64,000 nucleotides of DNA from an uncultured bacterium (lineage in GTDB: Bacteria; Hydrothermota; UBA3072). Shown here one piece after another: positions 9,501 through 48,357 of the stretch; the stretch's first letter is position 1; every line of letters starts with the position of its first letter. The position numbers were made by a program, and so were the translations under genes. Where the stretch lies: positions 29,237 through 93,236 of the forward strand of contig CAYQMH010000001.1 of assembly GCA_964418485.1 (NCBI GenBank), written 5' to 3'. Under the pieces are notes generated by a model. It was not told where the DNA came from and searched no databases. It saw nothing but the letters and a program-made list of their open reading frames with translations.

Positions 9501-9902
9501 ATGATAGGTGATTTGACCGGCGAGGTCCTGCAGGCGCTTTTGGAAACGGTGCCCTTCGAATTCTCTGTGTTAGATGAGAACGATAAAGTTCTTGCCTGGA
9601 ACAAACATAAAACGAGAATATTTAAAAGATCTGTTGGCGTCATTGGCAGGGATGTTCGCGATTGTCATCCAAAGAAAAGCCTGGACAAAGTAGAAAAACT
9701 ACTTCTTGAGATGAAGGAAGAAAAGAGAGAAAAGGCAAGATTTTGGATTGATCTTCCTTTAGGGGAAAAGGGCAAGCAAAAGATTCTCATCGAGTATTAT
9801 GCTCTTAGAGGTAAATCGGGTAAGTATATAGGCTGCCTCGAGGTTACTCAAAACATAACCGATATTCAGTCACTGGAAGGAGAAAAGCGTCTTCTCGATT
9901 GA
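9501..9902 (+). CDS. Small PAS-fold domain protein (DUF438-like), function unknown
   Basis: The 133-aa ORF is divergent from hsp20. Its beta/alpha pattern and the RDVRDCHP motif are compatible with a PAS-like sensor domain. The product call is weak. Confidence 0.4.
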   Translation: MIGDLTGEVLQALLETVPFEFSVLDENDKVLAWNKHKTRIFKRSVGVIGRDVRDCHPKKSLDKVEKLLLEMKEEKREKARFWIDLPLGEKGKQKILIEYYALRGKSGKYIGCLEVTQNITDIQSLEGEKRLLD

Positions 9903-10050: not shown

Positions 10051-10078
10051 TTGACAAAAATAAAATAAGGAATATATT
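10051..10078 (+). promoter_or_regulatory. Candidate sigma70 promoter TTGACA-16-TATATT for the tusA-dsrE-iscS operon
   Basis: ccccTTGACAaaaataaaataaggaaTATATTa lies about 65 nt upstream of the tusA ATG. Confidence 0.4.
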
Positions 10079-10142
10079 ATTAGTAGCTCTACTAATTCGA
10101 TAGAATTAGTAGAATAAGAAAAATTTAAAATTGGGGGTAAAA

Positions 10143-10364
10143 ATGTCTGAAATAAAAGTTGATTGTATAAATGAAACGTGTCCCGTTCCTCTTGTGGAAA
10201 CGAGGAAAGCTTTACGTAAAGTTTCTAAGGGTGATGTGGTTGAGGTTAGGGGAACGCATCAATCTTCCAAAAAGGAGATACCTATGGCAGTAAAATCGAT
10301 GGGATTGGAGCTTTTGGGGGTTGAGGAGAAAGATGGGGTGTGGTCGATAAGGATTCGTAAATAG
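10143..10364 (+). CDS. tusA: TusA-like sulfurtransferase (sulfur carrier)
   Basis: The 74-aa protein has a CPVP (CPxP) motif near the N-terminus. The start at 10143 is preceded by a GGGGG RBS. Confidence 0.8.
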   Translation: MSEIKVDCINETCPVPLVETRKALRKVSKGDVVEVRGTHQSSKKEIPMAVKSMGLELLGVEEKDGVWSIRIRK

Positions 10365-10372
10365 GAGGAGAT

Positions 10373-10792
10373 ATGAATAAAAAAGCGACTTTGATTGTTC
10401 ATAGCGGAGATTTAGATAAGGTTTATAGCGCTTTTATTATTGGTCTGGGTGCTCTTTCTATGGGTATGGATGTTTCCATGTATTTTACTTTCTGGGGTCT
10501 CGAACGCCTTAAAAAGGGAAATCTGGATAAAGCTCCGCTTTCAAGAATGAATATGTTTGGACTCGGCAGATGGATGATAAGGCGAAAGATGAGGCGGGCA
10601 GGCGTGGCTTCTCTTGATGAAATGCTCAAAGACTTTGTTGAGCTCGGAGGAAAAATACTTGCCTGTGATATGACAATGGAGATAATGGGCGTAAACAAGG
10701 AAAATTTAAGGGATGATGTAATAAGTAATTATTGCGGTGTGGGAACTTATATAAAAGAAGCAATGGAGTCCGATGTAACTTTGTTTATTTAG
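10373..10792 (+). CDS. DsrE/DsrF-like sulfur-relay family protein
   Basis: The 139-aa ORF lies immediately downstream of tusA. It has the size and hydrophobic core pattern of the DsrE/DsrF-like family, and the TusA-DsrE pairing is common. Confidence 0.55.
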   Translation: MNKKATLIVHSGDLDKVYSAFIIGLGALSMGMDVSMYFTFWGLERLKKGNLDKAPLSRMNMFGLGRWMIRRKMRRAGVASLDEMLKDFVELGGKILACDMTMEIMGVNKENLRDDVISNYCGVGTYIKEAMESDVTLFI

Positions 10793-10806: not shown

Positions 10807-11982
10807 ATGGATAAAAAGACGATATATTTCGACAATGCCGCATCCAGCAGGATGGATGAAAGAGTACTGGAAGCAATGAAGCCATATTTTTTTGATGTTT
10901 ATGCTGTCGCAACTTCCGAATTCGGATATTCTCTTGGAATTGAGGCAAGGGAAGCTTTAGATTCCGCGAGATTAAAAATACTTTCAGCTCTGGGGAATCC
11001 CGAAGGAAAGTTGATTTTTACTTCAGGGAGTACGGAATCGAGTAATATTGCTATTAAAGGAGTAGTCAGGAAGCTGTCAGGTAAAAAAGGAAAACACATA
11101 ATTGTATCTAAAATCGAGGATTTTCCCGTTTTGAATAGCGCAAAGTCTCTCGAAAGGGAAGGATTTAAAGTTACTTATCTAGCTGTAGACAAGTATGGCC
11201 TTGTTGATCCAGAAGAGCTTAAAGATTTGATAACAGAGGATACTATATTGGTCTCGATTCAGCACGCGAATCAGGAAATAGGAACGATTCAGGATATAAA
11301 AACAATTGGTGAAATATGCAGCAAAAATAATGTAATTTTTCATTCTGACGCTACACATTCTTTTATGAGAGTTCCTCTCGATTTGAACAAGTTAGGTGTG
11401 GATTTGCTGACGATATCCGCTCATACAATACATGGCCCCAAGGGTATTGGCGCTCTTTACGTAAGAGAAGGAGTTCCAGTAGCGAAATGGATCGACGGTG
11501 GATTTCAGGAGTTTGATTTGAGGGCCGGCGTTGAGAACATTCCCGGAGCAGTTGGTTTCGCTAAAGCAGTCGAGCTGGTAGTAGAAGAAGAAAACGAAAC
11601 ACTTAAAAATTTGCGGGACTATCTTATAGAAAAAGTCCAAAAAGAGATACCCGATACTATCTTAAATGGTCATCCTGAGAAAAGAATTCCCCATAATGCC
11701 AATATAACTTTTCACTATGTCGAAGGAGAATCCATTACACTTCATCTCGATATGAAGGGTTTTGCCGTTAGTACAGGTTCTGCATGTTTCAGTAAGTCTC
11801 TCGAGGCAAGCTATGTTATATTGGGTATAGGAGGCGACCATGAGAGAGCCCACGGCTCTGTTCGCTTTAGTTTCGGAAGATATAATAAAAAAGAAGATGT
11901 AGATGATATAGTAGAGGCTCTTAAGAATATAGTAAAACAGTTGAGAGTAATTAGCCCTCTTAAAGGAGAGAAAGTGAGGTAA
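10807..11982 (+). CDS. IscS/NifS-like class V aminotransferase (cysteine desulfurase homologue) lacking the PLP-binding lysine (HTIHGPKG instead of HKIYGPKG)
   Basis: The 391-aa ORF has an IscS fold throughout. The active-site Cys loop is present (STGSACFS). The Schiff-base Lys position is encoded by the codon aca (Thr) at 11425-11427. Confidence 0.85.
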   Translation: MDKKTIYFDNAASSRMDERVLEAMKPYFFDVYAVATSEFGYSLGIEAREALDSARLKILSALGNPEGKLIFTSGSTESSNIAIKGVVRKLSGKKGKHIIVSKIEDFPVLNSAKSLEREGFKVTYLAVDKYGLVDPEELKDLITEDTILVSIQHANQEIGTIQDIKTIGEICSKNNVIFHSDATHSFMRVPLDLNKLGVDLLTISAHTIHGPKGIGALYVREGVPVAKWIDGGFQEFDLRAGVENIPGAVGFAKAVELVVEEENETLKNLRDYLIEKVQKEIPDTILNGHPEKRIPHNANITFHYVEGESITLHLDMKGFAVSTGSACFSKSLEASYVILGIGGDHERAHGSVRFSFGRYNKKEDVDDIVEALKNIVKQLRVISPLKGEKVR

Positions 11983-11984
11983 AG

Positions 11985-12620
11985 ATGAAATTCCCATACA
12001 GTGAAAAAGTTCTTGAGCATTTTAGAAACCCAAGAAATGTTGGGAACATTGAGAACGCGGACGGAAAATCCACCGAAGGCAGTCCCGCGTGCGGGGATAT
12101 GGTTTCCGTTTATATCAAAGTGGATGAAGAAACAAAAAAGATAGAAGATATAAAATTTGAATCGTACGGTTGTGCTTCAAATATAGCTACCGGATCTATA
12201 ATAACGGAATTGGCAAAAGGTAAAACTCTCGAAGAAGCTAAAAAAATAGACTGGAAAGAGGCTTCGGATGCTCTTGGGGGACTGCCAAAAATAAAAACTC
12301 ATTGCTCCGTGCTCGCAGTAGATGGTCTGCGGGCTGCGATTACCAATTACGAGGAAAAACACGGTCTTGTTAAAGAAAAAGTCCCAACGACGAAAGAGAT
12401 CGTGCTGAAGAGACTAAGACACGTTATGAATCCCCTGGCAGGGCTCGACCTCGTAAGAACTAATTTGATAGATAGCGTTAAGGTGGAAAATGGAACTATA
12501 GAGGTATCGGTAAGTCTTCCCGAGGATCATCAATTTGCGAATAACATCAGGGAAGAAATATTAGAAAAACTTGAAAATCTTTGGGATGTTGATAAAGTTG
12601 TTGTTATATTTACTGTTTAG
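11985..12620 (+). CDS. IscU/NifU-type Fe-S scaffold fused to a C-terminal DUF59 (MIP18/SufT-like) domain
   Basis: The N-terminal ~125 aa carry IscU motifs (PACGD...YGCASN...HCS). The C-terminal ~80 aa are DUF59-like (RHVMNPLAGLDLVRTNLI). Confidence 0.8.
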   Translation: MKFPYSEKVLEHFRNPRNVGNIENADGKSTEGSPACGDMVSVYIKVDEETKKIEDIKFESYGCASNIATGSIITELAKGKTLEEAKKIDWKEASDALGGLPKIKTHCSVLAVDGLRAAITNYEEKHGLVKEKVPTTKEIVLKRLRHVMNPLAGLDLVRTNLIDSVKVENGTIEVSVSLPEDHQFANNIREEILEKLENLWDVDKVVVIFTV

Positions 12621-12641: not shown

Positions 12642-12890
12642 ATGTTGAAAGAGAAAAAAGAAAGTAAAATGAAAGAAAAAGTTGAAGAAGCTATAAAAGA
12701 TATTAAGCCATCTTTACGGGCTGACGGAGGAGATGTTGAACTCCTCGAAGTCACAGAGGAAGGAATAGTGAAGGTCAGGCTGATGGGAGCTTGCTCGGGA
12801 TGTATGATGTCTCAAGTAACTTTGAAGTCCGGGATAGAAAATTACCTGAAGCAGCAAGTTCCTGAAGTTAAAGAAGTGGTTGCTGTTTGA
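12642..12890 (+). CDS. Nfu/NifU C-terminal-domain Fe-S carrier protein
   Basis: The 82-aa ORF carries GACSGC (CxxC) in a NifU_C-like context. Confidence 0.7.
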   Translation: MLKEKKESKMKEKVEEAIKDIKPSLRADGGDVELLEVTEEGIVKVRLMGACSGCMMSQVTLKSGIENYLKQQVPEVKEVVAV

Positions 12891-12949
12891 TAGTAGCGGG
12901 TAATGGTTAGGATTAAAAGAGTAAATAAGAAAACGGAGGTTTTTAGGTG

Positions 12950-13360
12950 ATGAAATTTTCAACGAAAACGAGATATGGGATGAGGGCGATGATCGAACTT
13001 GCTAATTGTTATAAAGATAAACCGATTCTTTTAAAGGAAATTGCCGAACGGTTAGAAGTTTCCATGAAATATCTTGACCATATTGTTTCTTCTTTGAAAG
13101 CAAGAGGTTTAATAGTCAGAGTGAAAGAGGGTTATATCCTTGGCAGAGCTCCCGAAGAGATAAATTGTGGTGAGATAGTGGATGTGCTCGAGGGTTCTTT
13201 AAATCCCGTAGTTTGTATAGATTCACCGTCGTTTTGTGAGAAGTACAGGGAATGTAAAGCAAAAAAGGTGTGGGGAAAAGTCGGGGCTTCTATAAAGGAA
13301 ACATTAGAATCCTTTACACTAGATAATTTAATAAATTATAAGGCGGCAAAGCCGCTGTAA
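12950..13360 (+). CDS. Rrf2-family transcriptional regulator (IscR-like)
   Basis: It begins KFSTKTRYGMRAMIELA with an HTH region, as in Rrf2/IscR proteins. C-terminal Cys residues are available for a cluster. Confidence 0.8.
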   Translation: MKFSTKTRYGMRAMIELANCYKDKPILLKEIAERLEVSMKYLDHIVSSLKARGLIVRVKEGYILGRAPEEINCGEIVDVLEGSLNPVVCIDSPSFCEKYRECKAKKVWGKVGASIKETLESFTLDNLINYKAAKPL

Positions 13361-13363
13361 GGA

Positions 13364-13654
13364 GTGAAAATGGATGTAAAGCATGTCGAAGGAGAAAAAA
13401 AGGGTAAAATAATGCTCTATGCGATATCCACCTGTGTCTGGTGTAAGAAAACGAAAAAACTACTTAATAGCCTCAATGTAGATTATTACTATGTAGATGT
13501 CGACCTTCTGGAAGAAACTGAAAGGGAAGAGGTTGAGAAAGAAGTTATGAAGTGGAATCCTTCATGTTCTTTTCCTACTCTTGTTATAAATGATAGAGAA
13601 TCGGTAAGTGGTTATGACGAGGAAGAAATAAGGAGTAAAATTAAAAATGAATGA
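13364..13654 (+). CDS. Glutaredoxin-like / thioredoxin-fold protein (CVWC active site)
   Basis: The 96-aa ORF has a CxxC motif (STCVWCKK) in a Trx fold. Confidence 0.6.
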
Positions 13655-14165
13655 AAGTGATATTCCATCAGAGCAAATAGACAATCTATATAAAAAACTC
13701 GATTCTGAAGCAGAAAGTTCAGGATACCACCTTAATCCAGATGAGGAATTCACAAAAGAACTGGTGGAGGGTTTGCTTATAAACGAAAAGAGATACGGAT
13801 ACTGGGCATGCCCGTGCAGACTTGCATCTATGGTAAAGGAAAAAGATCTCGATATAATATGCCCCTGCGATTACAGGGATCCGGATTTAAATGATTATGA
13901 TACATGTTATTGCGGGCTTTACGTCTCTCAGGCGGTTGTAGACGGAGAAAGAGAGGTAAAGAAAATACCGGAGAGAAGGCTTCCGAAAGAGGAAAGAGAA
14001 AAAATGAAGAAGGAATCCGGAAATAAATCAGTTGGAATATCGAAGCTGTCGAAACCAGTATGGCGTTGTAAAGTGTGCGGATATCTTTGCGGACGGGACG
14101 AGCCTCCGGGAGTATGTCCTATATGTAAAGCTAAAAAAGAACGTTTCGAGAAATTTTTGGAATGA
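13647..14165 (+). CDS. Ferredoxin:thioredoxin reductase catalytic-subunit-like protein fused to a C-terminal rubredoxin-like domain
   Basis: SSGYHLNPD...CPCR...CPC...CYC matches the FtrC signature. The C-terminal CKVCGY...CPICK is rubredoxin-like. Confidence 0.7.
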
Positions 14166-16078: not shown

Positions 16079-18055
16079 TTAGTTTATCAAGATTATCTTT
16101 ATCTTTTCGTCGATTTCCTGTCCTTGCATTACAACAAAGTAGATATCGCTCGCGAGTTTCAAATTCTTCAGCGACAAAGGATGGTACCCGCGTTCCACGA
16201 TTCCGTTAAGAAGTGTTCCCGCTTCCCTTCCTAATTTGTCGTATACCTTTACCGTTATTTCGCCTTTTTTTGCCACCTCGCAAAGAATCTCTCCGCTTCC
16301 GAAGCTCGCGCTTATACCGGAAACAGAAGGGGCTTCCGCGATGCCTCCTTCTGCTACGACTTCGATGTCAACCGTAGCGCTAAGTGTATCGACGAGATTT
16401 TCGGATACCCACATTACCTCTACCGTAACGGTTTCCTCGGTACTTCCCGCGGTAAACTCTGTGTACACTTCACCTTCACTGTCTGTTACACCGCTTGTGG
16501 GATTTACCGAACCATCTCCGATTATAACATCAAAGCTAAGCTCTTCGCCCGCGAGACCAGCCCCTTCTTTTTCAAGATATGCTCTCAATTCTAAAGTCTC
16601 ACCGAAGCTGATTGTGTCACTATCGGAAAATAAGGAAAGTCCGTCGGCGCTTATCCAGTTGCTTCTGTCGAACCATGCCATCTGTTCGGGCCAGTTGACG
16701 TATAGTATGCCGTATATTCCGTCCGCTATCCTTTCGATGCAGGGCTTTACGTTCGCGCGCGGGACGTTATCGGCAAAAGAATCCGGCGTAGTCCATGAGC
16801 TTAAATTATAACTTCTATGCCTGTAAATACCTTCGGCGAATGTACCTGTCGTTTGATATACTGCTCCGAATCCGTCTCCTCCTCTTGCCGTGACGTCATT
16901 TACTAAGCTCTGAATATCGGACCCAGACAATATAGTTCCCACGGCCCAATTGGTTCCACTGTTACTGGTAATATAATATCTTACATCATAGGTGGGTGAA
17001 TTATAGAAGGGATAAACGATCATGACGGTATCCCCGTAGGCACCTATGGATGTCACATAGTCGGCGTTAGTGCCGAGAACCGAACTAGTCGGATAAACGG
17101 TCCAACTTGACCAACCGCCAATAAAATAAAGCTCGTTGTCTGTTCCGATATACGAAGCCCACATTTTGTTTGGATATGCGCAGCAGGCGTCGAGTCCTCT
17201 ATCCGCGTCTGCCACAGGAGGATTGAAAGCAGTCCAGGATACTGCCAATGTGTCGTCATTATTATAATATAGTCTCAGAGAATCGTTTTGCATAATGGCG
17301 AAGTAAAACAGATATTGGGGAGTAGGATGGGCGTCATTGCTGGTCAGCGATATCTCTCTTAAGCCGGATGTTTCGTTGATTATCGTTTGATAGCTATATA
17401 CCCCATCGCTGCTGCCGTCGCTTGTGAAAAATCTTCTTATGCGGCCGACATTATTAGGTGTGTTATATGTATAAGCCAGGTAAAAGCGGTTTTTTAAAAC
17501 GGCACCGTCTATATCTATCAAATAATTGGGATTCGTAGTCCAAACATATGTCTCTGCCCAGGTTTTTCCCGTGTCGAGTGATATGTTCACAGTGAATTTA
17601 TAATTTGACGGTCCATTCCTGTGAAGAAGAGCGGCAAGCAGATGTCCGTTGGAATTGTCCACGTCGAAATCAATATCCACGATCGAGTCTACAGTACCGA
17701 CTCGAGCATCCCCCGCCCACCTTAAGGATATTTTTACCGGGTTTTTCCATTGTATGCCTATAGCTGCGTTGTCTAATTCGGGTGAAGTTTTCAGCAACTC
17801 TATCGCTTCCTCGTGGTTTCCACTGTTCCATGTTTCTTCTATGCGGTTGGCTTGTAACAGGTTTTCTCCGTCGCATTCGATATCAATAATGGCGTTTGAT
17901 TTTTCGTAAGTGGTTAAATTTTCGAGTGTTAGTGAGAGGGGCGAACTTTCAGTTGGAATTATAGCCGGAATGTCATAATTTCCTTGGTTATCAGTTGATG
18001 CCAATACTGCAAAGGAGAACAGCAAACATGCAAAAAAAACCGGTAACTTTTTCAT
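16079..18055 (-). CDS. Secreted BNR/Asp-box repeat protein with Ig-like (Big) domain and T9SS-type C-terminal sorting domain
   Basis: It has a signal peptide MKKLPVFFACLLFSFAVLAS and Asp-box motifs (SLDTGKTW, NSGTNWAV). A Big-like segment precedes a C-terminal ~80-aa Por-secretion-tail-like end (...SDIYFVVMQGQEIDEKIKIILIN). Confidence 0.6.
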   Translation of the reverse strand: MKKLPVFFACLLFSFAVLASTDNQGNYDIPAIIPTESSPLSLTLENLTTYEKSNAIIDIECDGENLLQANRIEETWNSGNHEEAIELLKTSPELDNAAIGIQWKNPVKISLRWAGDARVGTVDSIVDIDFDVDNSNGHLLAALLHRNGPSNYKFTVNISLDTGKTWAETYVWTTNPNYLIDIDGAVLKNRFYLAYTYNTPNNVGRIRRFFTSDGSSDGVYSYQTIINETSGLREISLTSNDAHPTPQYLFYFAIMQNDSLRLYYNNDDTLAVSWTAFNPPVADADRGLDACCAYPNKMWASYIGTDNELYFIGGWSSWTVYPTSSVLGTNADYVTSIGAYGDTVMIVYPFYNSPTYDVRYYITSNSGTNWAVGTILSGSDIQSLVNDVTARGGDGFGAVYQTTGTFAEGIYRHRSYNLSSWTTPDSFADNVPRANVKPCIERIADGIYGILYVNWPEQMAWFDRSNWISADGLSLFSDSDTISFGETLELRAYLEKEGAGLAGEELSFDVIIGDGSVNPTSGVTDSEGEVYTEFTAGSTEETVTVEVMWVSENLVDTLSATVDIEVVAEGGIAEAPSVSGISASFGSGEILCEVAKKGEITVKVYDKLGREAGTLLNGIVERGYHPLSLKNLKLASDIYFVVMQGQEIDEKIKIILIN

Positions 18056-22292: not shown

Positions 22293-23180
22293 TTATATTT
22301 CCACCCCCAAAGTCACTCTTATAATTATCCCTATTACAAAAGAAAGGGCGGCAACTCCGAGGCTTAAAAATGTCATCTCAAGAAAACGTTTTCTGAAAGG
22401 TAAATCCTTTGCAATTGAAACGTAGTAGTTGAAGAAGAATATAATGAATACTCCGATACCCAGAGTTGCCGTCAGGGCTAAGATATAATTGTTAAAAATA
22501 AAATATGGCAAAACCAGCAATAAAACAGTAACAATATAAGCTGTTCCAGTATAGAGTGAAGACTTGAGCGCTGTTTCAGTATTTCCTTCCGCTTTTGTAG
22601 AGAGGTATTCTGAAGCACCCATAGAAAGAGAAGCAGCAATTCCTGTTATGATTCCTACCGCCGCTATGAGACTTGTTTTTTGAAGGGCAAAAGAAAGGCC
22701 GGCAAGACTCCCGGTTAATTCAACAAGAGCATCATTTAAACCCAGAACAATTGAACCAACATAGTTGAGCTTTTCTTCGTCGAGTAAATCGATCAATTCT
22801 TTTTCGTGTTTTTCTTCATCTTCTGCGATTTGTTCCGCTTCCGGGATATATTCCGCGATTTCCATGTAATTAACCTGAGCCTGTTCTTCGCCTTTTTCCA
22901 TCAGTTTTACCGCAAAAGTGTACCCTAAGAATTTTGCGATTAAAGTAAATTTAAAAATTTTCCAGCGATTTGGCTTTAGATCTTTCTTCGTAATTGTTTG
23001 CCAGAATTTGGCATGCCTTAATTCTTCGTTTGCAATATCGAGCAAAACTTTTCTGTTCTTTTTGTCTTTTACTAATTTTGCAATATTGGAATATATATAG
23101 TATTCGGTAAGTTCACTCATTTGAGCAGTATAAATTTGTTTCATAATATGTTCAAGAGCTTCTAGTGACTTCCCCATCAA
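22293..23180 (-). CDS. Membrane-bound ferritin-like / VIT1-CCC1 family iron transporter (MbfA-like, erythrin-VIT fusion)
   Basis: An N-terminal ferritin-like four-helix region with E..H pairs (ANEELRHAKFW...EDEEKHEKEL) is followed by a C-terminal 5-TM VIT1 domain. Confidence 0.75.
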   Translation of the reverse strand: MMGKSLEALEHIMKQIYTAQMSELTEYYIYSNIAKLVKDKKNRKVLLDIANEELRHAKFWQTITKKDLKPNRWKIFKFTLIAKFLGYTFAVKLMEKGEEQAQVNYMEIAEYIPEAEQIAEDEEKHEKELIDLLDEEKLNYVGSIVLGLNDALVELTGSLAGLSFALQKTSLIAAVGIITGIAASLSMGASEYLSTKAEGNTETALKSSLYTGTAYIVTVLLLVLPYFIFNNYILALTATLGIGVFIIFFFNYYVSIAKDLPFRKRFLEMTFLSLGVAALSFVIGIIIRVTLGVEI

Positions 23181-23319
23181 ACCTCCTTATAGTAGCAGAA
23201 GATTGTTAAAGTTTAACCCCTGCATCAATAAAAACTTTTCTTCTTTTAAATTTTATGAATTTTTTGCCGTTTTGTCAACCGTTTTTTCTATAGACTGTTT
23301 TTAAATTCTTTGCAATATG

Positions 23320-23973
23320 TTATTTGAATACTTCACCCGTTTCTTTTGCCCAGAAAACGAGGTCCAGGGTATCCATCGGTATATTTAAATTTTTTGATAA
23401 CTTTTTCATTTTTTCTTCTATTTCTATATACTTTTTTTCTGATAAATTTTTTGGGTATTCTCCTAAGACCCCAAGTTCTATTAGATTTCTTATAATATGT
23501 CTATCAAGTATAGCTATATCTGCGCCAAGCCCAATATTTCGGAGGAAATGACTCGCTTCCTTCCATCCTATACCTTTCAGGTTTTTCACCAGATATTCTC
23601 TTAAGGTTATAGGAGATTTAGATTTTTTTATGATACTATATATTGAATCGCCACCCTTGAAAAATTTATTTCTGGCTTCGAGAAGATATTCTGTTTTTTT
23701 ATTTTTAAATCTGACCTTTTGCAGCTCTTTATTTATAGCTTTCTTTGTTCCGTTAAGAAGAATACTCTTTTTTCGCATCGATAGGATCGCCTCCCAGCAC
23801 AATCTTGCTTTCGATTGAGGAGTCAATATGCAGAAGGCTAATTCGGCAAACACCTCTTCGGGACTTGCGTTTTCGCCTATTTGCTTGAATTCGTCGAGCC
23901 GGCGTTCAATTTCTTTCTTGAATTTCGAATATACTTGTTTTATTTCGGGGATATTTTTTTTATTAATTTCCAA
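23320..23973 (-). CDS. ogg: 8-oxoguanine DNA glycosylase / N-glycosylase-DNA lyase (archaeal-type Ogg2, HhH-GPD)
   Basis: The 217-aa ORF has the HhH-GPD motif LKGIGWKEASHFLRNIGLGADIAILDRHI with catalytic Lys and Asp. Confidence 0.75.
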   Translation of the reverse strand: MEINKKNIPEIKQVYSKFKKEIERRLDEFKQIGENASPEEVFAELAFCILTPQSKARLCWEAILSMRKKSILLNGTKKAINKELQKVRFKNKKTEYLLEARNKFFKGGDSIYSIIKKSKSPITLREYLVKNLKGIGWKEASHFLRNIGLGADIAILDRHIIRNLIELGVLGEYPKNLSEKKYIEIEEKMKKLSKNLNIPMDTLDLVFWAKETGEVFK

Positions 23974-24039
23974 TTTTCCAAACTTACCATACTAAAGTGA
24001 TTGCCTATGTCAAGACGGCAACCCACCCCACACCAAATA

Positions 24040-24260
24040 TTAACCACAGAGGACACAGAGAAAAACAAACCCTCAGAGACCACAGAGAAAAACAACAAAT
24101 TATTTTTTTAATTAAAAACCCCAACCCCTCCAAAAAATAGAAACAACGAATTACACGAATAGCACGAATATCGAAAAGAAAAAAACTGATTTATTTGTGC
24201 AATTTGTTGTTAAAAAACGGGTGGTGCGGGTTCTTTATTTTTCCTATTCGACAATTTAAC
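24040..24260. repeat. Copy of dispersed composite intergenic repeat (CACAGAG heptads, C-rich complement of G tract, TTCGTG heptads)
   Basis: ccacagaggacacagagaaaaacaa...aaaccccaacccctcc...acgaattacacgaatagcacgaa is closely similar to 33228-33330. Its reverse complement is similar to 34490-34570. Confidence 0.65.
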
Positions 24261-24343
24261 CATTCAACTAATTTTCTGACGCCCTGATTCTTCTTGCTCC
24301 GCAAACCTGCTTTTCTTTTTCTCAATTAGAGAAAAACTACACC

Positions 24344-24371
24344 TTGACAAAAACAAGAAATCATATATAAT
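24344..24371 (+). promoter_or_regulatory. Sigma70-type promoter TTGACA-16-TATAAT for rubrerythrin-sor
   Basis: accTTGACAaaaacaagaaatcataTATAATga lies about 60 nt upstream of the rbr ATG. Confidence 0.5.
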
Positions 24372-24433
24372 GATTTGGAATAATTTTAAATTTGTAATGA
24401 TTACAAAAATAAAATGAAAGTTCAGGAGGTAAG

Positions 24434-24937
24434 ATGAAAGAGATGACGAAGAGAGCCTTAAGCGATGCGTTCGCCGGAGAATCTATGGCTCATATGAAAT
24501 ACATTATTTACAGCGATATTGCAAGAGAGGAAGGATATTCTAATGTGGCAAGGCTTTTTGAGGCTATCGCGTATGCCGAGAGAGTGCATGCCAGAAATCA
24601 TGCCAGGCTTTTAGGCTTATTGGGTAAGACGGTTGGCAATCTTCGGAAAAGCGTTGACGGAGAATCCTTTGAAATCGAGGAAATGTATCCTGTTTATAAA
24701 AACACTGCAAGTCTTCAAGGTGAGAAGGCGGCAGAGATTTCAAATAATTACGCTTTAGAAGCCGAAAAAATACATCAAACTATGTATGCAGAGTCAAAGA
24801 AAGATGTTGCAAAAGGTAAGGACATAAAATTAGCAGAAGTTTATGTTTGCCCCGTTTGCGGATATACGCACGAAGGAAATCCGCCGGATAAATGTCCGGT
24901 ATGTAACGCTTCTTCTAAAACATTTAAAAAATTTTAA
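24434..24937 (+). CDS. rbr: Rubrerythrin (ferritin-like di-iron domain + C-terminal rubredoxin domain)
   Basis: E..H di-iron ligands and a C-terminal CPVCGY...CPVC are present. Confidence 0.9.
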   Translation: MKEMTKRALSDAFAGESMAHMKYIIYSDIAREEGYSNVARLFEAIAYAERVHARNHARLLGLLGKTVGNLRKSVDGESFEIEEMYPVYKNTASLQGEKAAEISNNYALEAEKIHQTMYAESKKDVAKGKDIKLAEVYVCPVCGYTHEGNPPDKCPVCNASSKTFKKF

Positions 24938-24957
24938 CGAAAGGGAGGTATTGAATT

Positions 24958-25338
24958 ATGGGTTTTGCAGAACTTTTAAAAACGGCTGATTGGAAATCTG
25001 AAAAACATGTACCTGCAATAGAAGTATTGGAAAAAGATGAAAAGGTCAAGTTAAGAGTTTCCGTTGGTAAAGAAATTCCTCATCCAAACAAAACCGAACA
25101 TCATATAAGGTGGATCGAAGTTTACTTTAAGCCCGAAGGCAGTAAGTTTCCTTATATGATCGGAAAGGCTGATTTTGAAGCACACGGAGCTTCCACGGAA
25201 GGTCCCGATACAAGTACGGTTTATACTGAACCGGATGTTAATCTAACGTTTAAAACCGGAAAATCTGGCACTATCTATGCTTTCTCTTACTGTAACATCC
25301 ACGGCCTGTGGGTTAACGAAGAGGAGTTGGATATATAG
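24958..25338 (+). CDS. sor: Superoxide reductase (neelaredoxin/desulfoferrodoxin-type 1Fe-SOR)
   Basis: The 126-aa ORF has the SEKHVP motif and His/Cys ligands (HHIRW...YCNIHG). Confidence 0.85.
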   Translation: MGFAELLKTADWKSEKHVPAIEVLEKDEKVKLRVSVGKEIPHPNKTEHHIRWIEVYFKPEGSKFPYMIGKADFEAHGASTEGPDTSTVYTEPDVNLTFKTGKSGTIYAFSYCNIHGLWVNEEELDI

Positions 25339-28530: not shown

Positions 28531-28586
28531 AGTTGGTTTTAGTGTTACCTTTTATTAAAAAGTAACACTTGTTAAAGGGGGTATTA

Positions 28587-30374
28587 ATGGTTTTGTTTTT
28601 GGTGTATATTTTGGCGATTGTTGATTCTTCGGAATCTGTTATGGATACTTCGTATACTAAAATGTATTTTTCAGAAGGTGTAGTAGTTACCGCGAGCAGA
28701 TACGAGGATGAGGTTTCCGATATCTCAACGTCTGTTTCCGTAATTACCGAAAAGGATATAAAATTTGTAAATTCTTATATAGCTCCCGATTTGCTTTCTG
28801 ATGTTCCCGGTGTGGAAGTTATGAAAACGGGCAATTTTGGAAGAGCTGATGTAGTAATAAGAGGGATCGGAAATAATGGGAGGAAGCTTGGTTTCCTTGT
28901 CGACGGAAGACCGGAAAAGATGGCTATATATGGTTGTGCGGTAACCCATACGTTTCCTCTTCATAATGTAAAAAAAATAGAGGTTGTTAAGGGTCCCCTT
29001 TCTTCTTTGTACGGTTCCGGGGCTATGGGGGGTGTTGTCAATATTTTAACCAGGCAGCCCAGCGGTGGTGATAAGCTGAATTTCGAGTGTGATTACGGAA
29101 GTTACAATACTTACAATTTAACTGGTTCTTTCGAGGAATCTTTCTCTAAAATAGATTTTTTGGGTACAGTGCAAAAGAATTCATCCGATGGCTACCAGGA
29201 GAATTCGGCTTCGAGTACTGATGCTTATCAGGGTAATTTAGTATACAATATTAATGGAGATTGGAGAATTGAAAATTATGCCAAGTACGTGGAGGCATAT
29301 AAGCAGGATCCGGCAACCGTAGGAGATACCTCTACTCCTGAAGGCTATCAGAACTACGAAAGAGGAGCTTTTGATGTTTCTGTGTATGGGTATATGGATA
29401 AAATCGATTTTCAAACAAAAATCTACAGGACTTATGGTTATCATGAATTTTCTGACGGATGGGAGTCGAGGGATAGAACCGACGGTTTGAGTCCTTCGGT
29501 TAGATTATCTTTTTTAAAAGGAAATGAGACTCAAGGCGGCTTTGAATTTTATAAACAATACGGGAACTGGATTTCTACTGATAGAAAGTGGGATAGGGCA
29601 GTATATGAAGGATTTATTCATACGCAGCAGAAAACCTCGTTTGTTAATCTTTCGGGAGGGGTAAGATATACTTATGTAAGCGATTCGGAAGGGGTTTTTT
29701 CATACGATGGTGGAATTGTTATTAAATATAATAACACAAGGATTCGGGGTAGAATAGGCAAAGGCTTTAGACTCCCTTCTTTTAATGATCTCTATCTTTT
29801 TTCTTCCTCGAATCCTTCTCTCGTGGCGGAAGAACTGTGGGATTACGAAATCGGTTTAAGGCAAAAATTGTCTGATATCATGGACCTCGATTTTGCTCTA
29901 TACCGTATGAATACAAACAATTTCATCAGATTCTCTCCTACAAGTGGTCAATTTGAAAATATAGATACATTGATTGAGAAAGGGCTGGAAACTTCTATCG
30001 GTATATATCCCGTTGATTGGTTGAAGCTTAAAGTATTTTATTCTTATATCGACAGGGAGGATAGAACGCAAGGCGTTCCCGGTCAGAAGTTCAGCGGAAG
30101 TATTACTTTCGAGAGGGATATTTTAGAAGCAAGGTTGAGCGGAAGATATTTGACCGATTATTACGCTGCTGACAATCATTTAGAAGAAATCCCTTCCTAT
30201 TATGTTTTTGATTTCCGTTTAAATGTTAAACCTAAGGATTATGTGTCTTTGTCTTTAGGTATCGACAATATACTTGATGAGTACTATGAGCGGTATGTTG
30301 AAGTGCCTAATGCCACAGGTTTGTATAGCATGCCCGGTAGGACTTTTAAGATGGGAATTGCTCTGGAAAAATGA
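28587..30374 (+). CDS. TonB-dependent outer-membrane receptor (BtuB/CirA-like)
   Basis: A plug domain (VVTASRYEDEVSDISTSVSVITEKDI...VPGVEV...VVIRGIG) is followed by a ~500-aa beta-barrel region. RBS aagggggt precedes the ATG at 28587. Confidence 0.75.
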   Translation: MVLFLVYILAIVDSSESVMDTSYTKMYFSEGVVVTASRYEDEVSDISTSVSVITEKDIKFVNSYIAPDLLSDVPGVEVMKTGNFGRADVVIRGIGNNGRKLGFLVDGRPEKMAIYGCAVTHTFPLHNVKKIEVVKGPLSSLYGSGAMGGVVNILTRQPSGGDKLNFECDYGSYNTYNLTGSFEESFSKIDFLGTVQKNSSDGYQENSASSTDAYQGNLVYNINGDWRIENYAKYVEAYKQDPATVGDTSTPEGYQNYERGAFDVSVYGYMDKIDFQTKIYRTYGYHEFSDGWESRDRTDGLSPSVRLSFLKGNETQGGFEFYKQYGNWISTDRKWDRAVYEGFIHTQQKTSFVNLSGGVRYTYVSDSEGVFSYDGGIVIKYNNTRIRGRIGKGFRLPSFNDLYLFSSSNPSLVAEELWDYEIGLRQKLSDIMDLDFALYRMNTNNFIRFSPTSGQFENIDTLIEKGLETSIGIYPVDWLKLKVFYSYIDREDRTQGVPGQKFSGSITFERDILEARLSGRYLTDYYAADNHLEEIPSYYVFDFRLNVKPKDYVSLSLGIDNILDEYYERYVEVPNATGLYSMPGRTFKMGIALEK

Positions 30375-31141
30375 ATCTACTTTTTCTGATTTTAAGTATG
30401 GGAATAGTTACCTCGACAACCGATATATCTTCTGTTGTGGAGGCTATTGCTCCCGATGACGCTAAAGTGGTTAGCATTGTGTCCGGTGGAATGTGTCCCG
30501 GGCATTTTGATCTCTCTCCGGCTGAAGCTAATTTGATTTTTTTATCAGACTTAATTATTTATCACGGCTACGAATCATGGTTTGCGAAAGTGGAAAAATT
30601 AAAGCTCGATATCGATATAGTGGATTTAGAGACCGATGGTAGTTGGATGATTCCGGATATATATCTAAAAGGAGCTTTAGAGATTTACAATATTTTAAAA
30701 AAGGAATACGGTTCTGATAGTGTTAGTATCAGAAAAATCGATAAAAAGTACGAAAAATTTAAAATGAGTGTGGATACACTTTCTAATATAGTTGCAAAGA
30801 AGAAAGAATCGATTAAAGGAATTAAAGTTATTTGTAATGAACATCAGAAGGATTTTCTTCTTTTTCTCGGCGCGGAAGTTGTTGCCGTTTTTTCTCCGGG
30901 AGACGATATTTCTCTTAAAGAAATATCGGAGATAGTAAAAGTCGGAAAAGACGAAAACGTGCAGTTAGTTGTGGATAATCTTCAAAGCGGTAAAAAAGTC
31001 GGTAGCACGATAGCGGATGAATTAAAAAGTGCTTATATAATTTTTTCTAATTTTCCGGAAGAACAGGGATATAAGGTAACTCTTTTAAATAATATAGATC
31101 TCTTGCTGGAGATCATAAGTGATAAAAATACAAAAAGTTAG
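30371..31141 (+). CDS. Metal ABC transporter substrate-binding protein (TroA/ZnuA-like, cluster A-I), short form
   Basis: The 256-aa ORF has a signal/lipobox-like N-terminus and an HGYESW...LLFLGAEV pattern. It overlaps the upstream gene by 4 nt. Confidence 0.65.
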   Translation: MNLLFLILSMGIVTSTTDISSVVEAIAPDDAKVVSIVSGGMCPGHFDLSPAEANLIFLSDLIIYHGYESWFAKVEKLKLDIDIVDLETDGSWMIPDIYLKGALEIYNILKKEYGSDSVSIRKIDKKYEKFKMSVDTLSNIVAKKKESIKGIKVICNEHQKDFLLFLGAEVVAVFSPGDDISLKEISEIVKVGKDENVQLVVDNLQSGKKVGSTIADELKSAYIIFSNFPEEQGYKVTLLNNIDLLLEIISDKNTKS

Positions 31142-31874
31142 TAAATCCTTTAGTGGCAAAAAAGTTTTATCTGAGATTTCTCTCGATATAAAAAAGCAGG
31201 ATTTTGTTGCGATAATAGGTCCAAACGGAGCAGGAAAGACGTGCCTGCTTAGAATAATAAACGGGCTTTTTATTCCTGATGAGGGAAAAATTAGAGTATT
31301 TGACCTTGATCCGGTTAAAAATGGTCTATTTGTAAGAAAAAAAATTGGTTTTATTTTTCAAAATGAGTTTATAACCAGAGATGTGCCTCTTTCGGTTAAT
31401 GATGTTGTTTCTGTGGGGAGGGTAGGGGTAAAAGGGCTTTTTAAAAATCTTGATAAAGAAGATTTTGAATCCGTTCGAAATGCTATGGACGAGGTTGGAA
31501 TAAGCGATCTGGTGAATAGACCTGCGGGTTTTCTTTCGGGAGGAGAGCAGAGAAAGGTGTCGATTGCGCGAGAATTGGCAAGAGATGTCGAAATTCTTCT
31601 TCTTGATGAGATTTTAATGAATTTAGACCCTGCTTCACAAATGGAAATTAATAATTTAATTACTCGTATTTACGAAAAACATAAATTGACAGTTGTTTTC
31701 GTAACTCATCTTCTAAGGTATTTACCGGAAGGTATTAATAGAGTTGTGGCTCTTAAGAATGGAAAAGTGTTCAGTGATTTTTCGAACCAAGATTTTAATT
31801 CAAAGGATTTATCTCGACTTTATGATGTCGATGAGGAAAATTTGAAGAAATATGTGGGAAATTTTAAGTTATAG
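31119..31874 (+). CDS. Metal ABC transporter ATP-binding protein (ZnuC/MntB-like)
   Basis: It has Walker A GPNGAGKT, signature LSGGEQRK and Walker B LLLDE. Confidence 0.85.
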   Translation: MIKIQKVSKSFSGKKVLSEISLDIKKQDFVAIIGPNGAGKTCLLRIINGLFIPDEGKIRVFDLDPVKNGLFVRKKIGFIFQNEFITRDVPLSVNDVVSVGRVGVKGLFKNLDKEDFESVRNAMDEVGISDLVNRPAGFLSGGEQRKVSIARELARDVEILLLDEILMNLDPASQMEINNLITRIYEKHKLTVVFVTHLLRYLPEGINRVVALKNGKVFSDFSNQDFNSKDLSRLYDVDEENLKKYVGNFKL

Positions 31875-32658
31875 TTATTTTCAAAATGCGCTCTTGGGTT
31901 CTATTCTTGCCGGGATAGGTCTCGGTATTGTAGGTGTATGGGTAGTTCTCCTCCGGATTCCCTTTGTGGGAGTCGCCATATCTCATGCCGCTTTTGCCGG
32001 GTCCGTAATTGGACTTCTCTTTGGAGTAGATCCTGTTTTGATGGCAATAGTATTTTCTTTGCTTGCTTCGATTTTAATAGGGCCTATTGCGGAAAAATCC
32101 GGTCTCGAAGCAAACGTGATAATCGGTATTATTTTTTCTCTTGTTTTGGGAATCGCTTTTCTCGGACTTGGTTTGATAAAGGGTCCCAAAACAGAAGCAT
32201 TCAATCTTATCTGGGGAAGTATTCTTACTCTTTCAAGAGTAAATATATATTTGAACGCCGGAATAACTTTTTTTGTGATTCTTTTCCTGCTTTTTTTCGG
32301 AAAAGAAATAAAAGCGGTATTTTATAATAGAGAAGTCGCGGCTTCGTGCGGAATACCCGAGAAGTTTATTTTTTTTAGTCTGCTTTTCCTGTCCGGATTT
32401 GTAATTTGTCTTAATTTGAATACAATCGGAGGAATATTAATTTTCAGTCTTTTGATAAATCCTCCTTCGGCCGCGAGAATTCTGACTCACAGTCTTTCTA
32501 AAATGTATCTTCTATCGATTCTTTTTGGTATTATCGCCTGCCTATCGGGACTTTTCTTTTCTTATGTGTTTTCTGTCCCTGCCGGGGCCACAATAATAAT
32601 CGTTTCTTCGCTTATTTTTATAATTTCAATGGTTTTAAGAGGTGGAAATGGAAGTTGA
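31852..32658 (+). CDS. Metal ABC transporter permease (ABC-3 family, ZnuB-like)
   Basis: The 268-aa protein has about 8 TM segments with ABC-3 topology. It overlaps the ATPase gene. Confidence 0.8.
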   Translation: MWEILSYSYFQNALLGSILAGIGLGIVGVWVVLLRIPFVGVAISHAAFAGSVIGLLFGVDPVLMAIVFSLLASILIGPIAEKSGLEANVIIGIIFSLVLGIAFLGLGLIKGPKTEAFNLIWGSILTLSRVNIYLNAGITFFVILFLLFFGKEIKAVFYNREVAASCGIPEKFIFFSLLFLSGFVICLNLNTIGGILIFSLLINPPSAARILTHSLSKMYLLSILFGIIACLSGLFFSYVFSVPAGATIIIVSSLIFIISMVLRGGNGS

Positions 32659-33467: not shown

Positions 33468-34265
33468 TCATTCCTGCGCTACGAATTTTTCTCTTTTTGC
33501 TTTTATATTTATTTCCTGAACTCTGTCGGCTATATCTGCGTTTATATATGTATAACCATTAAAGGTTTTGGAAGATTCTCCTGAAATGTCCAGATTTTGC
33601 AAAACCTCATCCGCAATAATCGAACCTTCTTTATTCAAGAATTCTACTGTGGCTGTAAGATTTATTGATTCTTTTTCCTGATTGTAAACAGTAAATTCCC
33701 AGAAAAATTTCCATTTTTCACTGCCTCTTTCCGTAACTTTGGTGTTGGCTCCGAAAATATTCCATGTTGGTTCTTCCAGGTCTTTTCCTGACGCTACGAT
33801 TTTACCCGAGGTGGATTTTTCCTCTTTTATTTTTCCTTCAGTTGCGGTTTTAGGCTCTAAGGAGAGTTCGATTGCATCGTCAACACCATATCCTGTAATC
33901 CTGCAAACTTTGCCCAAAGAATCACTTTCGAATCCCACGATTCCGGGTTTGTCGGCTTCTCCGGACATGTATGCTTTGTTTTCTCCCGTTTTATAAGTGA
34001 TAGGATTCTCGAAAGCTATGCCCAATTCGCGCTTGATCCATGAAACGGAACTGTTTTTCGGATAATATCCGTTTTCCCAGGAGAATTTCTTTGCTGCTTT
34101 TTCCATTATTTTCATATTTTCTTTAACGGATACGATTGTGATTGCTTCGCTGACCTGTTCATAGGATTCACCGACGACAGAAATATACGGAGACATTAAG
34201 TGCCCAAGCGCAACACCCGCAATAAAAGCCACAATGATTAAGAATACAGCGCTTCTTTTTTTCAT
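33468..34265 (-). CDS. Hypothetical membrane-anchored (N-terminal TM) extracytoplasmic protein
   Basis: The 265-aa ORF has an N-terminal TM segment (AVFLIIVAFIAGVALG). No recognisable catalytic motif was found. Confidence 0.5.
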   Translation of the reverse strand: MKKRSAVFLIIVAFIAGVALGHLMSPYISVVGESYEQVSEAITIVSVKENMKIMEKAAKKFSWENGYYPKNSSVSWIKRELGIAFENPITYKTGENKAYMSGEADKPGIVGFESDSLGKVCRITGYGVDDAIELSLEPKTATEGKIKEEKSTSGKIVASGKDLEEPTWNIFGANTKVTERGSEKWKFFWEFTVYNQEKESINLTATVEFLNKEGSIIADEVLQNLDISGESSKTFNGYTYINADIADRVQEINIKAKREKFVAQE

Positions 34266-36051: not shown

Positions 36052-36888
36052 ATGTATAAGATATTAAAGAAAGAAAAAATTGGGCCGAATTTAAATAAAT
36101 TCGTAATAGAAGCGCCGCTTGTACCAAGAAATTACCAGCCGGGTCAGTTTGTTATATTAAAGGTAAATGAGGTAGGTGAGCGAATTCCTATTACAATCGC
36201 AGAAGCGGATAAGGATAAAGGAACAATTACAGTATTCGTTCAGGAAGTGGGTAAGACTACTTATAAACTGGGAGAATTGAAGGCTGGAGATTCTATCTCG
36301 GATGTGGTCGGTCCACTCGGCCATCCGGCTAAAATAGACAAAGTTGGAACTGTCGTAACAATAGGCGGAGGAGTGGGTACTGCCATTGTTTATCCGGAAA
36401 CGAAAGCGTTCAAAGAAGCAGGGAATTATGTTATTTCCATAATAGGTTTCAGAAATAAAGAGCATGTCATATTAGAAGAAGAAATGAGAAAATATTCTGA
36501 TGAGCTTTATGTCCTGACCGACGACGGTTCTTACGGAAAAAAAGGATTTACAACCGATGAATTACAGGAGCTTGAAAGTGCAGGAAGAAAGATGGATCTT
36601 GTAATAGCTATTGGTCCCGCAATAATGATGAAGAAAATCTCGGAAATGACAAAAGGATATAATGTTAAAACGATTGTTTCTCTTAATTCTACAATGATGG
36701 ATGCCACCGGTATGTGTGGGGGTTGCAGGGTCGAAGTTGACGGGGAAACTAAGTTTGCATGTGTTGACGGGCCGGAATTCGATGGCCATAAAGTAAATTT
36801 CGATTTACTTATAAAACGCCTTTCTACTTACGAAAAACAGGAAAAAGAAGCTCTTGACAGGTATAAAGATTGTAAAATCGGAAAGTAA
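36052..36888 (+). CDS. nfnA: NfnA / sulfide dehydrogenase beta subunit (FAD + [2Fe-2S] ferredoxin-NADP reductase-like small subunit)
   Basis: The 278-aa ORF has an FNR-like fold with a C-terminal Cys cluster (GMCGGCRVEVDGETKFACVDGPEF). It is immediately followed by the GltD-like subunit. Confidence 0.8.
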   Translation: MYKILKKEKIGPNLNKFVIEAPLVPRNYQPGQFVILKVNEVGERIPITIAEADKDKGTITVFVQEVGKTTYKLGELKAGDSISDVVGPLGHPAKIDKVGTVVTIGGGVGTAIVYPETKAFKEAGNYVISIIGFRNKEHVILEEEMRKYSDELYVLTDDGSYGKKGFTTDELQELESAGRKMDLVIAIGPAIMMKKISEMTKGYNVKTIVSLNSTMMDATGMCGGCRVEVDGETKFACVDGPEFDGHKVNFDLLIKRLSTYEKQEKEALDRYKDCKIGK

Positions 36889-38295
<1,407 letters not shown>

Positions 38296-48356: not shown

Positions 48357-48357
48357 A

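Follow-up and report, generated by a model that had tools for sequence, protein, structure and literature searches.

In Escherichia coli IscS, mutagenesis showed that the desulfurase reaction depends on each of H104, D180, Q183, K206 and C328; Gln183 forms a hydrogen bond with O3' of pyridoxal phosphate (PLP; PMC9978102). The protein binds TusA, a contact documented by structural work, and transfers persulfide from its Cys328 (PMC2854127). IscS homologues devoid of the PLP-binding lysine have also been described. According to the passages on it in PMC7585200 and bioRxiv 10.1101/2024.03.20.586028, the IscS of Archaeoglobus fulgidus has aspartate instead of this lysine, has no desulfurase activity and contributes a cysteine as ligand of the cluster on IscU. 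IscS1 of Methanosarcina acetivorans was reported in 2020 to be without PLP-binding residues and was left uncharacterised (PMC7585200). Here, we describe iscS*, a gene of the IscS1 type, on a 64,000-nucleotide stretch of DNA (hereafter, the window; contig CAYQMH010000001.1 of assembly GCA_964418485.1) from an uncultured Hydrothermota bacterium, together with the operon of iron-sulfur (Fe-S) cluster and sulfur-carrier genes in which it lies. The first-pass annotation of this window, made from the sequence alone, had pointed to the lysine-less A. fulgidus precedent, and the two sources above bear it out.

The closest described relative is the M. acetivorans locus. MA0810 (SirA-like), MA0809 (DsrE superfamily), MA0808 (IscS1) and MA0807 (IscU1) form one gene cluster; MA0810 and MA0809 were termed 'genes of unknown function', and distribution was not analysed in that study (PMC7585200). 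We took the MA0808 sequence from the print in Fig. S2 of Deere et al. 2020 (optical character recognition copy). It is ~67% identical to IscS*, belongs to the same clade, and carries KIEDFPVL, SIQHSNQEIG, DATHSF, SAHTIHGP and STGSACFS, motifs that IscS* shares (the second in the form SIQH(A/S)NQEIG). The clusters are also alike in having SirA/TusA-like and DsrE-superfamily neighbours and an IscU of ~24 kDa. They differ in that the present host is a bacterium and its operon is extended by nfu, rrf2, grx-like and FDR-like genes. The IscS1-type clade and its neighbourhood are therefore known before from M. acetivorans (MA0807–MA0810); new here are the signature of pocket remodelling, the independence from A. 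fulgidus, the breadth of the clade and the co-evolving four-gene module. A literature search for an account of a tusA-dsrE2-iscS-iscU cassette, with most subscription journals outside its reach, turned up no paper that interprets it; apart from the 2020 report on M. acetivorans, the hits were unrelated.

Threonine at the PLP-lysine position of IscS*

The iscS* gene begins with an ATG preceded by a GAGAGGTG ribosome-binding site, and its reading frame is intact. As the first-pass annotation had proposed, the product is a full-length homologue of IscS/NifS: Pfam Aminotran_5 (PF00266) covers residues 6–367 (E=2.7e-73), and matches to solved structures of IscS, NFS1 and NifS span residues 3–388 (E ~1e-108 to 1e-75), the best being A. 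fulgidus IscS2 (4EB5; E=6e-108, residues 6–385). The score of IscS* stays below every NCBIfam desulfurase equivalog cutoff, including the curated NifS cutoff (TIGR03402; 438 bits vs 530.75) and those for IscS (TIGR02006/NF010611; 379.9 vs 643.2 bits and 393.8 vs 548).

Codon 207 of iscS* lies inside DLLTISAHTIHGPKGIGALYVR. Thr207 shares its column with Lys206 of E. coli IscS in a MAFFT alignment, and pairs with Asp199 of wild-type A. fulgidus IscS2 and with the engineered lysine of 4R5F in the HMMER alignment. The codon and both alignments thus agree on the lysine-to-threonine replacement that the first-pass annotation had reported. The annotation had also raised the concern that AAA was misread as ACA, and a single nucleotide indeed separates the two codons. 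Such a miscall, or the pseudogenisation of a desulfurase under relaxed selection, would make the replacement an artefact or a sign of decay.

We took the 120 best matches to IscS* from 5.8 billion proteins (identity 70–100%) and observed threonine at the lysine position in 117 of them, valine, asparagine and isoleucine in one each, and lysine in none. The same substitution is therefore present in the relatives where the annotation had proposed to look for it. Using clade-specific peptides against one genome per species (185,579 species), we found 532 genomes that encode an IscS* relative; counts of gene order and of neighbouring genes in this study rest on the best 80 of these species genomes. 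Across 83 related loci, threonine is present in 82, specified by all four of its codons (ACG 21, ACA 15, ACT 15 and ACC 31), and serine in one. As read from the codons, this usage is a signature of purifying selection on the threonine. The intact frame, the ~70% conservation across two domains and the further invariant replacements that go with the lysine loss likewise speak against an artefact or decay, whose probability we consider negligible. A sequencing error or a pseudogene was ruled out by the homologue survey, the codon usage and the accompanying replacements.

Remodelling of the cofactor pocket

Between 84 clade members and 116 Lys-bearing relatives, we looked for positions at which one residue is present in at least 95% of the clade and a different one in at least 75% of the relatives. 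Exactly nine positions discriminate the clade, namely N35V, S37T, H104D, M151Q, N155Q, Q183H, K206T, I249A and A341G. Seven of the nine fall within or beside active-site motifs, and most of them are predicted to line the cofactor/substrate pocket. The lysine change is one of several coordinated pocket replacements, the others having gone unremarked in the first-pass annotation.

Aspartate occupies the place of His104 in 100% of the clade (Asp105 in IscS*), vs histidine in 99% of the Lys-bearing relatives. The position of Gln183 is occupied by histidine (His184) in 100% of the 84-sequence locus set and by glutamine in 97% of the Lys-bearing relatives; among the 120 closest database proteins, tyrosine was found here in 7. 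Asn35 corresponds to Val34 in IscS*, and the position aligned with Thr243 is variable (Val, Ile or Leu). H104D, N155Q, Q183H and N35V are each 95–100% conserved in the clade. Thr76, Asp180, Ser203, His205, Cys328 and Arg354 (E. coli numbering) are retained in the clade, and D181, S204, H206, T76 and R353 of IscS* (own numbering) are invariant. The Cys loop (STGSACFS), described as intact in the first-pass annotation, is so, with Cys327 unchanged in all 84 sequences.

Of the five residues that E. coli IscS cannot do without, three (H104, Q183 and K206) are thus replaced in IscS*, and Asp180 and the cysteine are kept. Because of these three replacements we strongly infer, by analogy with the mutagenesis of the E. 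coli enzyme and with the A. fulgidus protein, that cysteine-desulfurase chemistry has been lost in the IscS* clade. The protein keeps the mobile Cys loop and appears to keep the scaffold for dimerisation and IscU binding. Also retained, near the C terminus, is an LRxISPL segment that homology with E. coli IscS would place in the IscU-binding region. The NCBI and JGI pipelines routinely give members of the clade (P0002–P0120) names such as 'cysteine desulfurase' and 'Cysteine desulfurase IscS'. Judged by the sub-cutoff scores and the absence of the catalytic residues, this label is a systematic over-annotation.

Breadth of the clade and its relation to A. fulgidus IscS2

Among 1.84 billion 50%-identity representatives, the IscS* clade accounts for one full-length sequence (P0121, 67% identical to IscS*) and two fragments, the whole clade falling into one 50%-identity cluster. 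The next full-length representatives are at most 51% identical to IscS* and bear the lysine. On this clustering, the clade is discrete and strongly conserved. The closest named relatives (88–91% identity) belong to candidate division WOR-3, from which the window probably comes as well, and all non-WOR-3 copies are 67–71% identical to IscS* of the window. The best 80 genomes comprise ~55 bacteria (WOR-3-type, Dehalococcoidia, Syntrophales, Anaerolineae, Clostridia and Thermotogae) and ~25 archaea, including Methanosarcinales (among them the cultured Methanococcoides and Methanohalophilus), Methanobacterium, Methanofastidiosa/Theionarchaea, and metagenome-assembled genomes (MAGs) of Altiarchaeales, Bathyarchaeia and Heimdallarchaeota. 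The ~69% identity between WOR-3 and archaeal copies, set against at most 51% to any Lys-bearing representative, points to purifying selection and not to decay.

A. fulgidus IscS2-IscU (4EB5/4EB7; Marinoni 2012, Yamanaka 2013 and Pagnier 2014, cited in PMC7585200) resembles the present pair in having the IscS fold without the PLP lysine, an IscU partner and a retained Cys loop. However, the lysine is replaced by aspartate there and by threonine in IscS*. A. fulgidus IscS2 also still has His104 and Asn155 but no longer the equivalent of Arg354, whereas the reverse holds for the IscS* clade, so that the residue signature is D-Q-H-T in IscS* and H-N-A-D in A. fulgidus IscS2. In addition, the parts of the A. 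fulgidus IscS-IscU accounts available to us mention neither TusA/DsrE2 partners nor a DUF59 fusion. IscS* shares 47% identity with A. fulgidus IscS2 and 44% with its E. coli counterpart. Because A. fulgidus IscS2, at this identity, is no closer to IscS* than Lys-bearing relatives are, we conclude from the sequence comparison that the lysine loss in the IscS* clade is independent of the change to aspartate in A. fulgidus. Neighbours of the clade in a neighbour-joining (distance) tree are Lys-bearing, and parsimony over the 149 nearest representatives gives at least 8 changes between lysine and non-lysine. Orthology of IscS* with A. fulgidus IscS was ruled out by the 47% identity, the Lys-bearing tree neighbours and the differing signature.

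The first-pass annotation had further taken lysine loss as a hallmark of the MIS (MisS-MisU) systems. This did not hold. Among the 150 closest representatives in the 50%-identity library, 130 carry lysine and the other 20 have L, T, D, M, S, P, Q, R or A; M. acetivorans IscS2 is active; and MisS (Garcia et al. 2022) is described as a cysteine desulfurase in the part of the review PMC13066941 that deals with it. As far as the window shows, the present locus would resemble MIS, a system of anaerobes, in having an IscS-like and IscU-like pair without HscAB, Fdx and IscA. We found no HscAB, Fdx or IscA genes in the operon or in the window, and the operon has additional TusA, DsrE2 and Nfu genes. 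The cassette, which adds two dedicated sulfur carriers and has DUF59 fused to IscU, differs from MIS and is not 'minimal'.

A four-gene module in bacteria and archaea

The first-pass annotation had placed iscS* in an operon with tusA, a dsrE-like gene, iscU-DUF59 and nfu, and all of these were recovered by Pfam matches (Table 1). The first three, together with iscS*, recur as a cassette. In 69 of the 78 evaluable loci, tusA-dsrE2 lies directly 5' of iscS* with gaps of ~16–20 nt, and the script places iscU::DUF59 directly 3' in 64 of 72; L081, where high-scoring segment pairs (HSPs) overlap, brings this to 65. The order tusA-dsrE2-iscS*-iscU::DUF59 is complete in 58 of 70 loci by script (59 with L081), and medians of the HSP gaps within the cassette are 16–27 nt. 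The flanks vary from lineage to lineage, and beyond the four core genes no neighbour is found in more than 11 of the 80 loci; nfu, present in only 6 of them, is a lineage-specific accessory gene.

Between WOR-3 and other phyla, each of the four proteins is ~69–73% identical (medians). For the four proteins, the matrices of pairwise distances are correlated (r=0.60–0.77), and the observed value was reached in none of 300 permutations. Because of this correlation we conclude that, as far as the distances tell, the module travels and evolves as a unit. Among strict anaerobes of the two domains, the cassette has probably passed as one block, both by descent and by horizontal transfer.

Residues that could act in relay or on the scaffold are invariant: Cys17 of TusA (numbering of the open reading frame (ORF); C-P-x-P motif; 74 cassette copies), Cys98 of the DsrE2-like protein, together with His10 (76 copies), Cys327 of IscS*, and Cys36, Cys63, His106 and Cys107 of IscU (73 copies). 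The IscU domain of the window retains all four of the latter and Asp38. Its HscA-binding motif reads LPKIK and not LPPVK, and the DUF59 half (12396–12620) is cysteine-free, with His182 99% conserved in 73 copies. PDB relatives of the window TusA are TM0983 and YeeD, and the best PDB matches of the DsrE2-like protein are 3PNX and 2QS7; neither protein reaches the NCBIfam equivalog cutoff for its family (TusA or DsrE2).

The cassette has several links to Fe-S metabolism. Genes for Nfu and an Rrf2 regulator lie in the window operon, and in a Methanobacteriaceae MAG (L025, 876–2860) an smsC-type ABC ATPase gene and a SufBD-core gene (SmsCB-like) adjoin the cassette directly on its 5' side.

Comparison with other sulfur-supply systems

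The IscS-TusA-TusBCD relay of E. coli employs the same three folds (IscS, TusA and the DsrE family) and persulfide chemistry on conserved cysteines. There, however, PLP-dependent IscS is the source, TusA is the acceptor and the sulfur is destined for tRNA thiolation, whereas the end point here would be the IscU scaffold. If IscS* is unable to make persulfide, as the analogies above suggest, the flow would therefore be reversed or rerouted relative to E. coli.

SMS (SmsCB) is likewise a cysteine-independent route of sulfur supply in anaerobes, and adjoins the cassette in the Methanobacteriaceae genome mentioned above. Its proteins are unrelated, being an ABC ATPase and a SufB-like scaffold, and we know of no sulfur-carrier proteins that serve it. 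The Rhd-TusA-DsrE2 relay of Allochromatium and Hyphomicrobium (PMC11094781) shares with the cassette side-by-side genes for TusA and a DsrE2-family protein, and cytoplasmic transport of sulfane sulfur. It feeds dissimilatory oxidation (rDsr/sHdr), whereas the cassette has no rhodanese, Dsr or sHdr nearby. The DsrE2-like protein of the cassette is of the soluble DsrE2B type (2QS7/3PNX), and its partners are IscS* and IscU.

A possible persulfide relay for Fe-S cluster assembly

We propose that the cassette is a cysteine-independent, persulfide-relay-fed ISC-like module for Fe-S clusters, a reading on which our confidence is evenly divided. Sulfane sulfur would be taken up by the DsrE2-like protein (on Cys98) and TusA (on Cys17); polysulfide, sulfide-derived persulfide or another desulfurase are candidate upstream sources. 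The persulfide would then be handed to Cys327 on the loop of IscS*, in the reverse of the IscS-to-TusA direction of E. coli. IscS* would deliver the sulfur to the IscU domain and, like its A. fulgidus counterpart, may also furnish the fourth ligand of the cluster. In the WOR-3-type operon, a chain from ferredoxin through the FDR-like protein to the Grx-like redoxin could supply the electrons for reduction of S0 to S2-. Nfu would carry the finished cluster, and a cluster-sensing Rrf2 repressor would close the feedback loop. The first-pass annotation had already argued for a route other than cysteine desulfuration. This suggestion is strengthened by the replacement of three of the five indispensable residues and by a cassette order kept in ~59 of 70 loci in two domains. 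We found no second desulfurase and no SUF or SMS genes in the window.

Several observations weigh against this proposal. By eye, the basic patch through which E. coli IscS contacts TusA (R220/R223/R225) is apparently not conserved in IscS* (YVREGVPVAKW), and the TusA contact on IscS* may differ from that in E. coli. M. acetivorans IscS1 is insoluble if expressed alone, and this organism, a bearer of the cassette, also has the active desulfurase IscS2. The lysine-less iscS2-iscU2 pair of A. fulgidus did not complement E. coli even with sulfide, which means that such pairs are insufficient alone and says nothing of what they need. Some loci depart from the full cassette: iscS*-iscU is without adjacent tusA/dsrE2 in Methanococcoides (L052 and L068), a Halobacteriota MAG (L071) and a Thermotogae MAG (L054), and iscS* is without adjacent iscU in Methanobacterium (L048, L066 and L074) and Anaerolineae (L018, L019 and L053). 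Finally, the invariance of the retained pocket residues hints that something is still bound there, and that IscS* is perhaps more than a passive relay.

The loci without tusA/dsrE2 would fit a role of IscS* as a ligand-only partner, as proposed for A. fulgidus IscS, in which it stabilises IscU and lends Cys327 as the fourth ligand. Free sulfide would then be the source, and TusA/DsrE2 would be used otherwise, for example to buffer or detoxify sulfane sulfur. A precedent exists in the structure and biochemistry of the A. fulgidus protein, and the hosts are sulfide-exposed anaerobes, with POR, rubrerythrin and desulfoferrodoxin in the window. However, tusA-dsrE2 is placed directly 5' in most loci and evolves together with IscS* and IscU, the clade arose separately from the A. 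fulgidus type, and in the remodelled pocket the residues do not drift but are invariant; we regard this role as unlikely. The same invariance raises the idea that the former PLP pocket holds a new ligand. This could be a metal bound by Asp105, Asp181, His184 and possibly His206, making an iron or zinc site that serves the scaffold, or a non-covalent cofactor or substrate that supports new catalysis. Two of the replacements (H to D and Q to H) yield potential ligand residues, both fixed in the 84-sequence set; D181, S204, H206, T76 and R353 are retained; and the discriminating positions cluster at the active-site motifs. The idea comes from sequence alone, PLP chemistry of a known type is very unlikely without the lysine and the stacking histidine, and we know of no precedent for such a pocket in class V aminotransferase folds. 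We consider it quite improbable.

The cassette could alternatively serve the thiolation of tRNA or of a cofactor in a Tus-like relay, IscS* being the adaptor from TusA/DsrE-type carriers to another acceptor. In E. coli, TusA and the DsrE-family TusBCD do work with IscS in 2-thiouridine synthesis (PMC2854127). This reading is hard to reconcile with an IscU domain, complete in its cluster ligands and joined to DUF59, that is encoded next to iscS* in nearly all loci, with Nfu and an IscR-like Rrf2 regulator in the window operon, with SmsCB next to the Methanobacteriaceae locus, and with the lack of any recurrent MnmA, ThiI or TusE-like neighbour gene in the 80 loci. We therefore judge thiolation to be very improbable.

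Returning to the persulfide relay, we put forward more tentatively the broader view that the cassette is a distinct, widespread cysteine-independent Fe-S route in at least ~500 anaerobic species. The PLP-less IscS paralogue would serve in it as the docking and hand-over subunit, and its pocket (Asp105/Gln156/His184/Thr207) may bind a new ligand, e.g. iron. If true, this would explain how sulfur is mobilised for clusters without a desulfurase in many anaerobes, as well as the failure of lysine-less IscS-IscU pairs alone in E. coli. Desulfurase-free supply of sulfur, and possibly iron, to scaffolds in strict anaerobes has so far been addressed by the direct use of sulfide in SMS. The lysine-less lineage described here is a tightly conserved, horizontally mobile four-gene module and not the oddity of one archaeon. 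The vague idea that an inactive IscS may be a ligand thereby takes the form of a concrete pathway that experiments can test, in which the cysteines and partners are defined and a candidate reductant is named.

The operon and the rest of the window

The genes of the operon are arranged head to tail from tusA through the FTR-beta/rubredoxin fusion, which closes the operon and shares 8 nt with the grx-like gene (Table 1). A putative sigma-70-like promoter was recognised upstream of tusA by its match to consensus. Immediately 3' of it, the ATTAGTAG repeats are a probable operator for the Cys-rich Rrf2 regulator of the operon itself, in whose translation the cysteines are spaced C90-x6-C97-x5-C103. 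TTAGTAG/CTACTAA motifs occur 34–57 nt 5' of tusA in 8 of 10 distinct close WOR-3-type loci. By its domains and motifs, the FTR-beta/rubredoxin fusion is predicted to be an FDR-type disulfide reductase. In the three Anaerolineae loci named above (L018, L019 and L053), a Grx-like and FDR-like pair comes right after iscS*, with no tusA, dsrE2 or iscU nearby. A stand-alone PAS_10 gene (9501–9902 in the window) lies 5' of the operon in WOR-3-type relatives, and a 69% identical copy is present just 3' of the cassette in a Syntrophaceae MAG (L058:4255–4656); it may be an accessory sensor.

Table 1. Coordinates of the operon, its upstream elements and key residues of IscS* in the window
Feature	Position	Strand	Details
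Promoter-like site (putative)	10051..10080	+	TTGACA, 16/18 nt spacer, TATATT/TATTAT; ~60 nt 5' of tusA; 11/12 consensus positions
Three alternating-orientation copies of ATTAGTAG	10079..10113	.	two overlapping palindromes; inverted repeats I1, I3
tusA	10143..10364	+	73 aa; Pfam TusA (PF01206) E=1.2e-22; ATG 10143, mechanical ORF call from TTG 10131
dsrE2B-like soluble sulfurtransferase-like gene	10373..10792	+	139 aa; Pfam DrsE_2 (PF13686) E=2.1e-37
iscS* (IscS1 type; IscS/NifS fold without PLP lysine)	10807..11982	+	391 aa; ~67% identity to M. acetivorans IscS1
Asp105	11119..11121	+	codon GAT; replaces PLP-stacking acid/base His104
Gln156	11272-11274	+	codon CAG; replaces Asn155
His184	11356..11358	+	codon CAT; replaces Gln183
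Thr207	11425..11427	+	codon ACA; PLP Schiff-base Lys position (E. coli K206)
Cys327	11785..11787	+	codon TGT; persulfide/cluster-ligand cysteine of mobile loop STGSACFS; invariant in 84 sequences
iscU::DUF59 fusion	11985..12620	+	211 aa; Pfam NifU_N E=1.3e-44, FeS_assembly_P E=3.4e-11; starts 2 nt past iscS* stop
nfu	12642..12890	+	NifU C-terminal-type cluster carrier, CxxC; Pfam NifU E=9.3e-29
Rrf2-family (IscR/CymR-like) regulator gene	12947..13360	+	Pfam Rrf2 E=1.3e-26; NCBIfam rrf2_super above cutoff
Grx/NrdH-like redoxin	13364..13654	+	CVWC motif; Pfam Glutaredoxin E=8.7e-14
FTR-beta-like catalytic domain + rubredoxin fusion	13647..14165	+	CPC..CPC..CYC; FeThRed_B (PF02943) + RUBY_RBDX (PF21349); PDB 4TPU E=4.5e-76

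The gene content of the window fits a saccharolytic, oxygen-sensitive anaerobe, with POR, rubrerythrin, desulfoferrodoxin, an NfnAB-like pair, GH94/GH130/GH3 and an H+-PPase. An oxidative-stress/iron cluster (22293–25338) contains a VIT1 and rubrerythrin-like fusion (22293–23180, minus strand), an Ogg-type glycosylase, a rubrerythrin with a rubredoxin tail (24434–24937) and desulfoferrodoxin (24958–25338). A metal-uptake operon (28569–32658) encodes a TonB-dependent receptor and, after it, a binding protein of ZnuA type together with an ABC ATPase and an ABC-3 permease. An NfnAB/SudAB-like pair (36052–38295) consists of a DHODB-type Fe-S/FAD subunit and a Fer4_20/Pyr_redox_2 subunit, homologues of which are annotated as NADH-dependent ferredoxin:NADP oxidoreductase or sulfide dehydrogenase. 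No Pfam match at E<=1e-5 was obtained for four ORFs, at 16079–18055 (minus, 658 aa), 33468–34265 (minus, 265 aa), 40716–42266 (plus, 516 aa) and 48304–50256 (plus, 650 aa). Two secreted proteins (51180–52601 and 53748–55703) carry Por_Secre_tail sorting domains of the type IX secretion system (T9SS).

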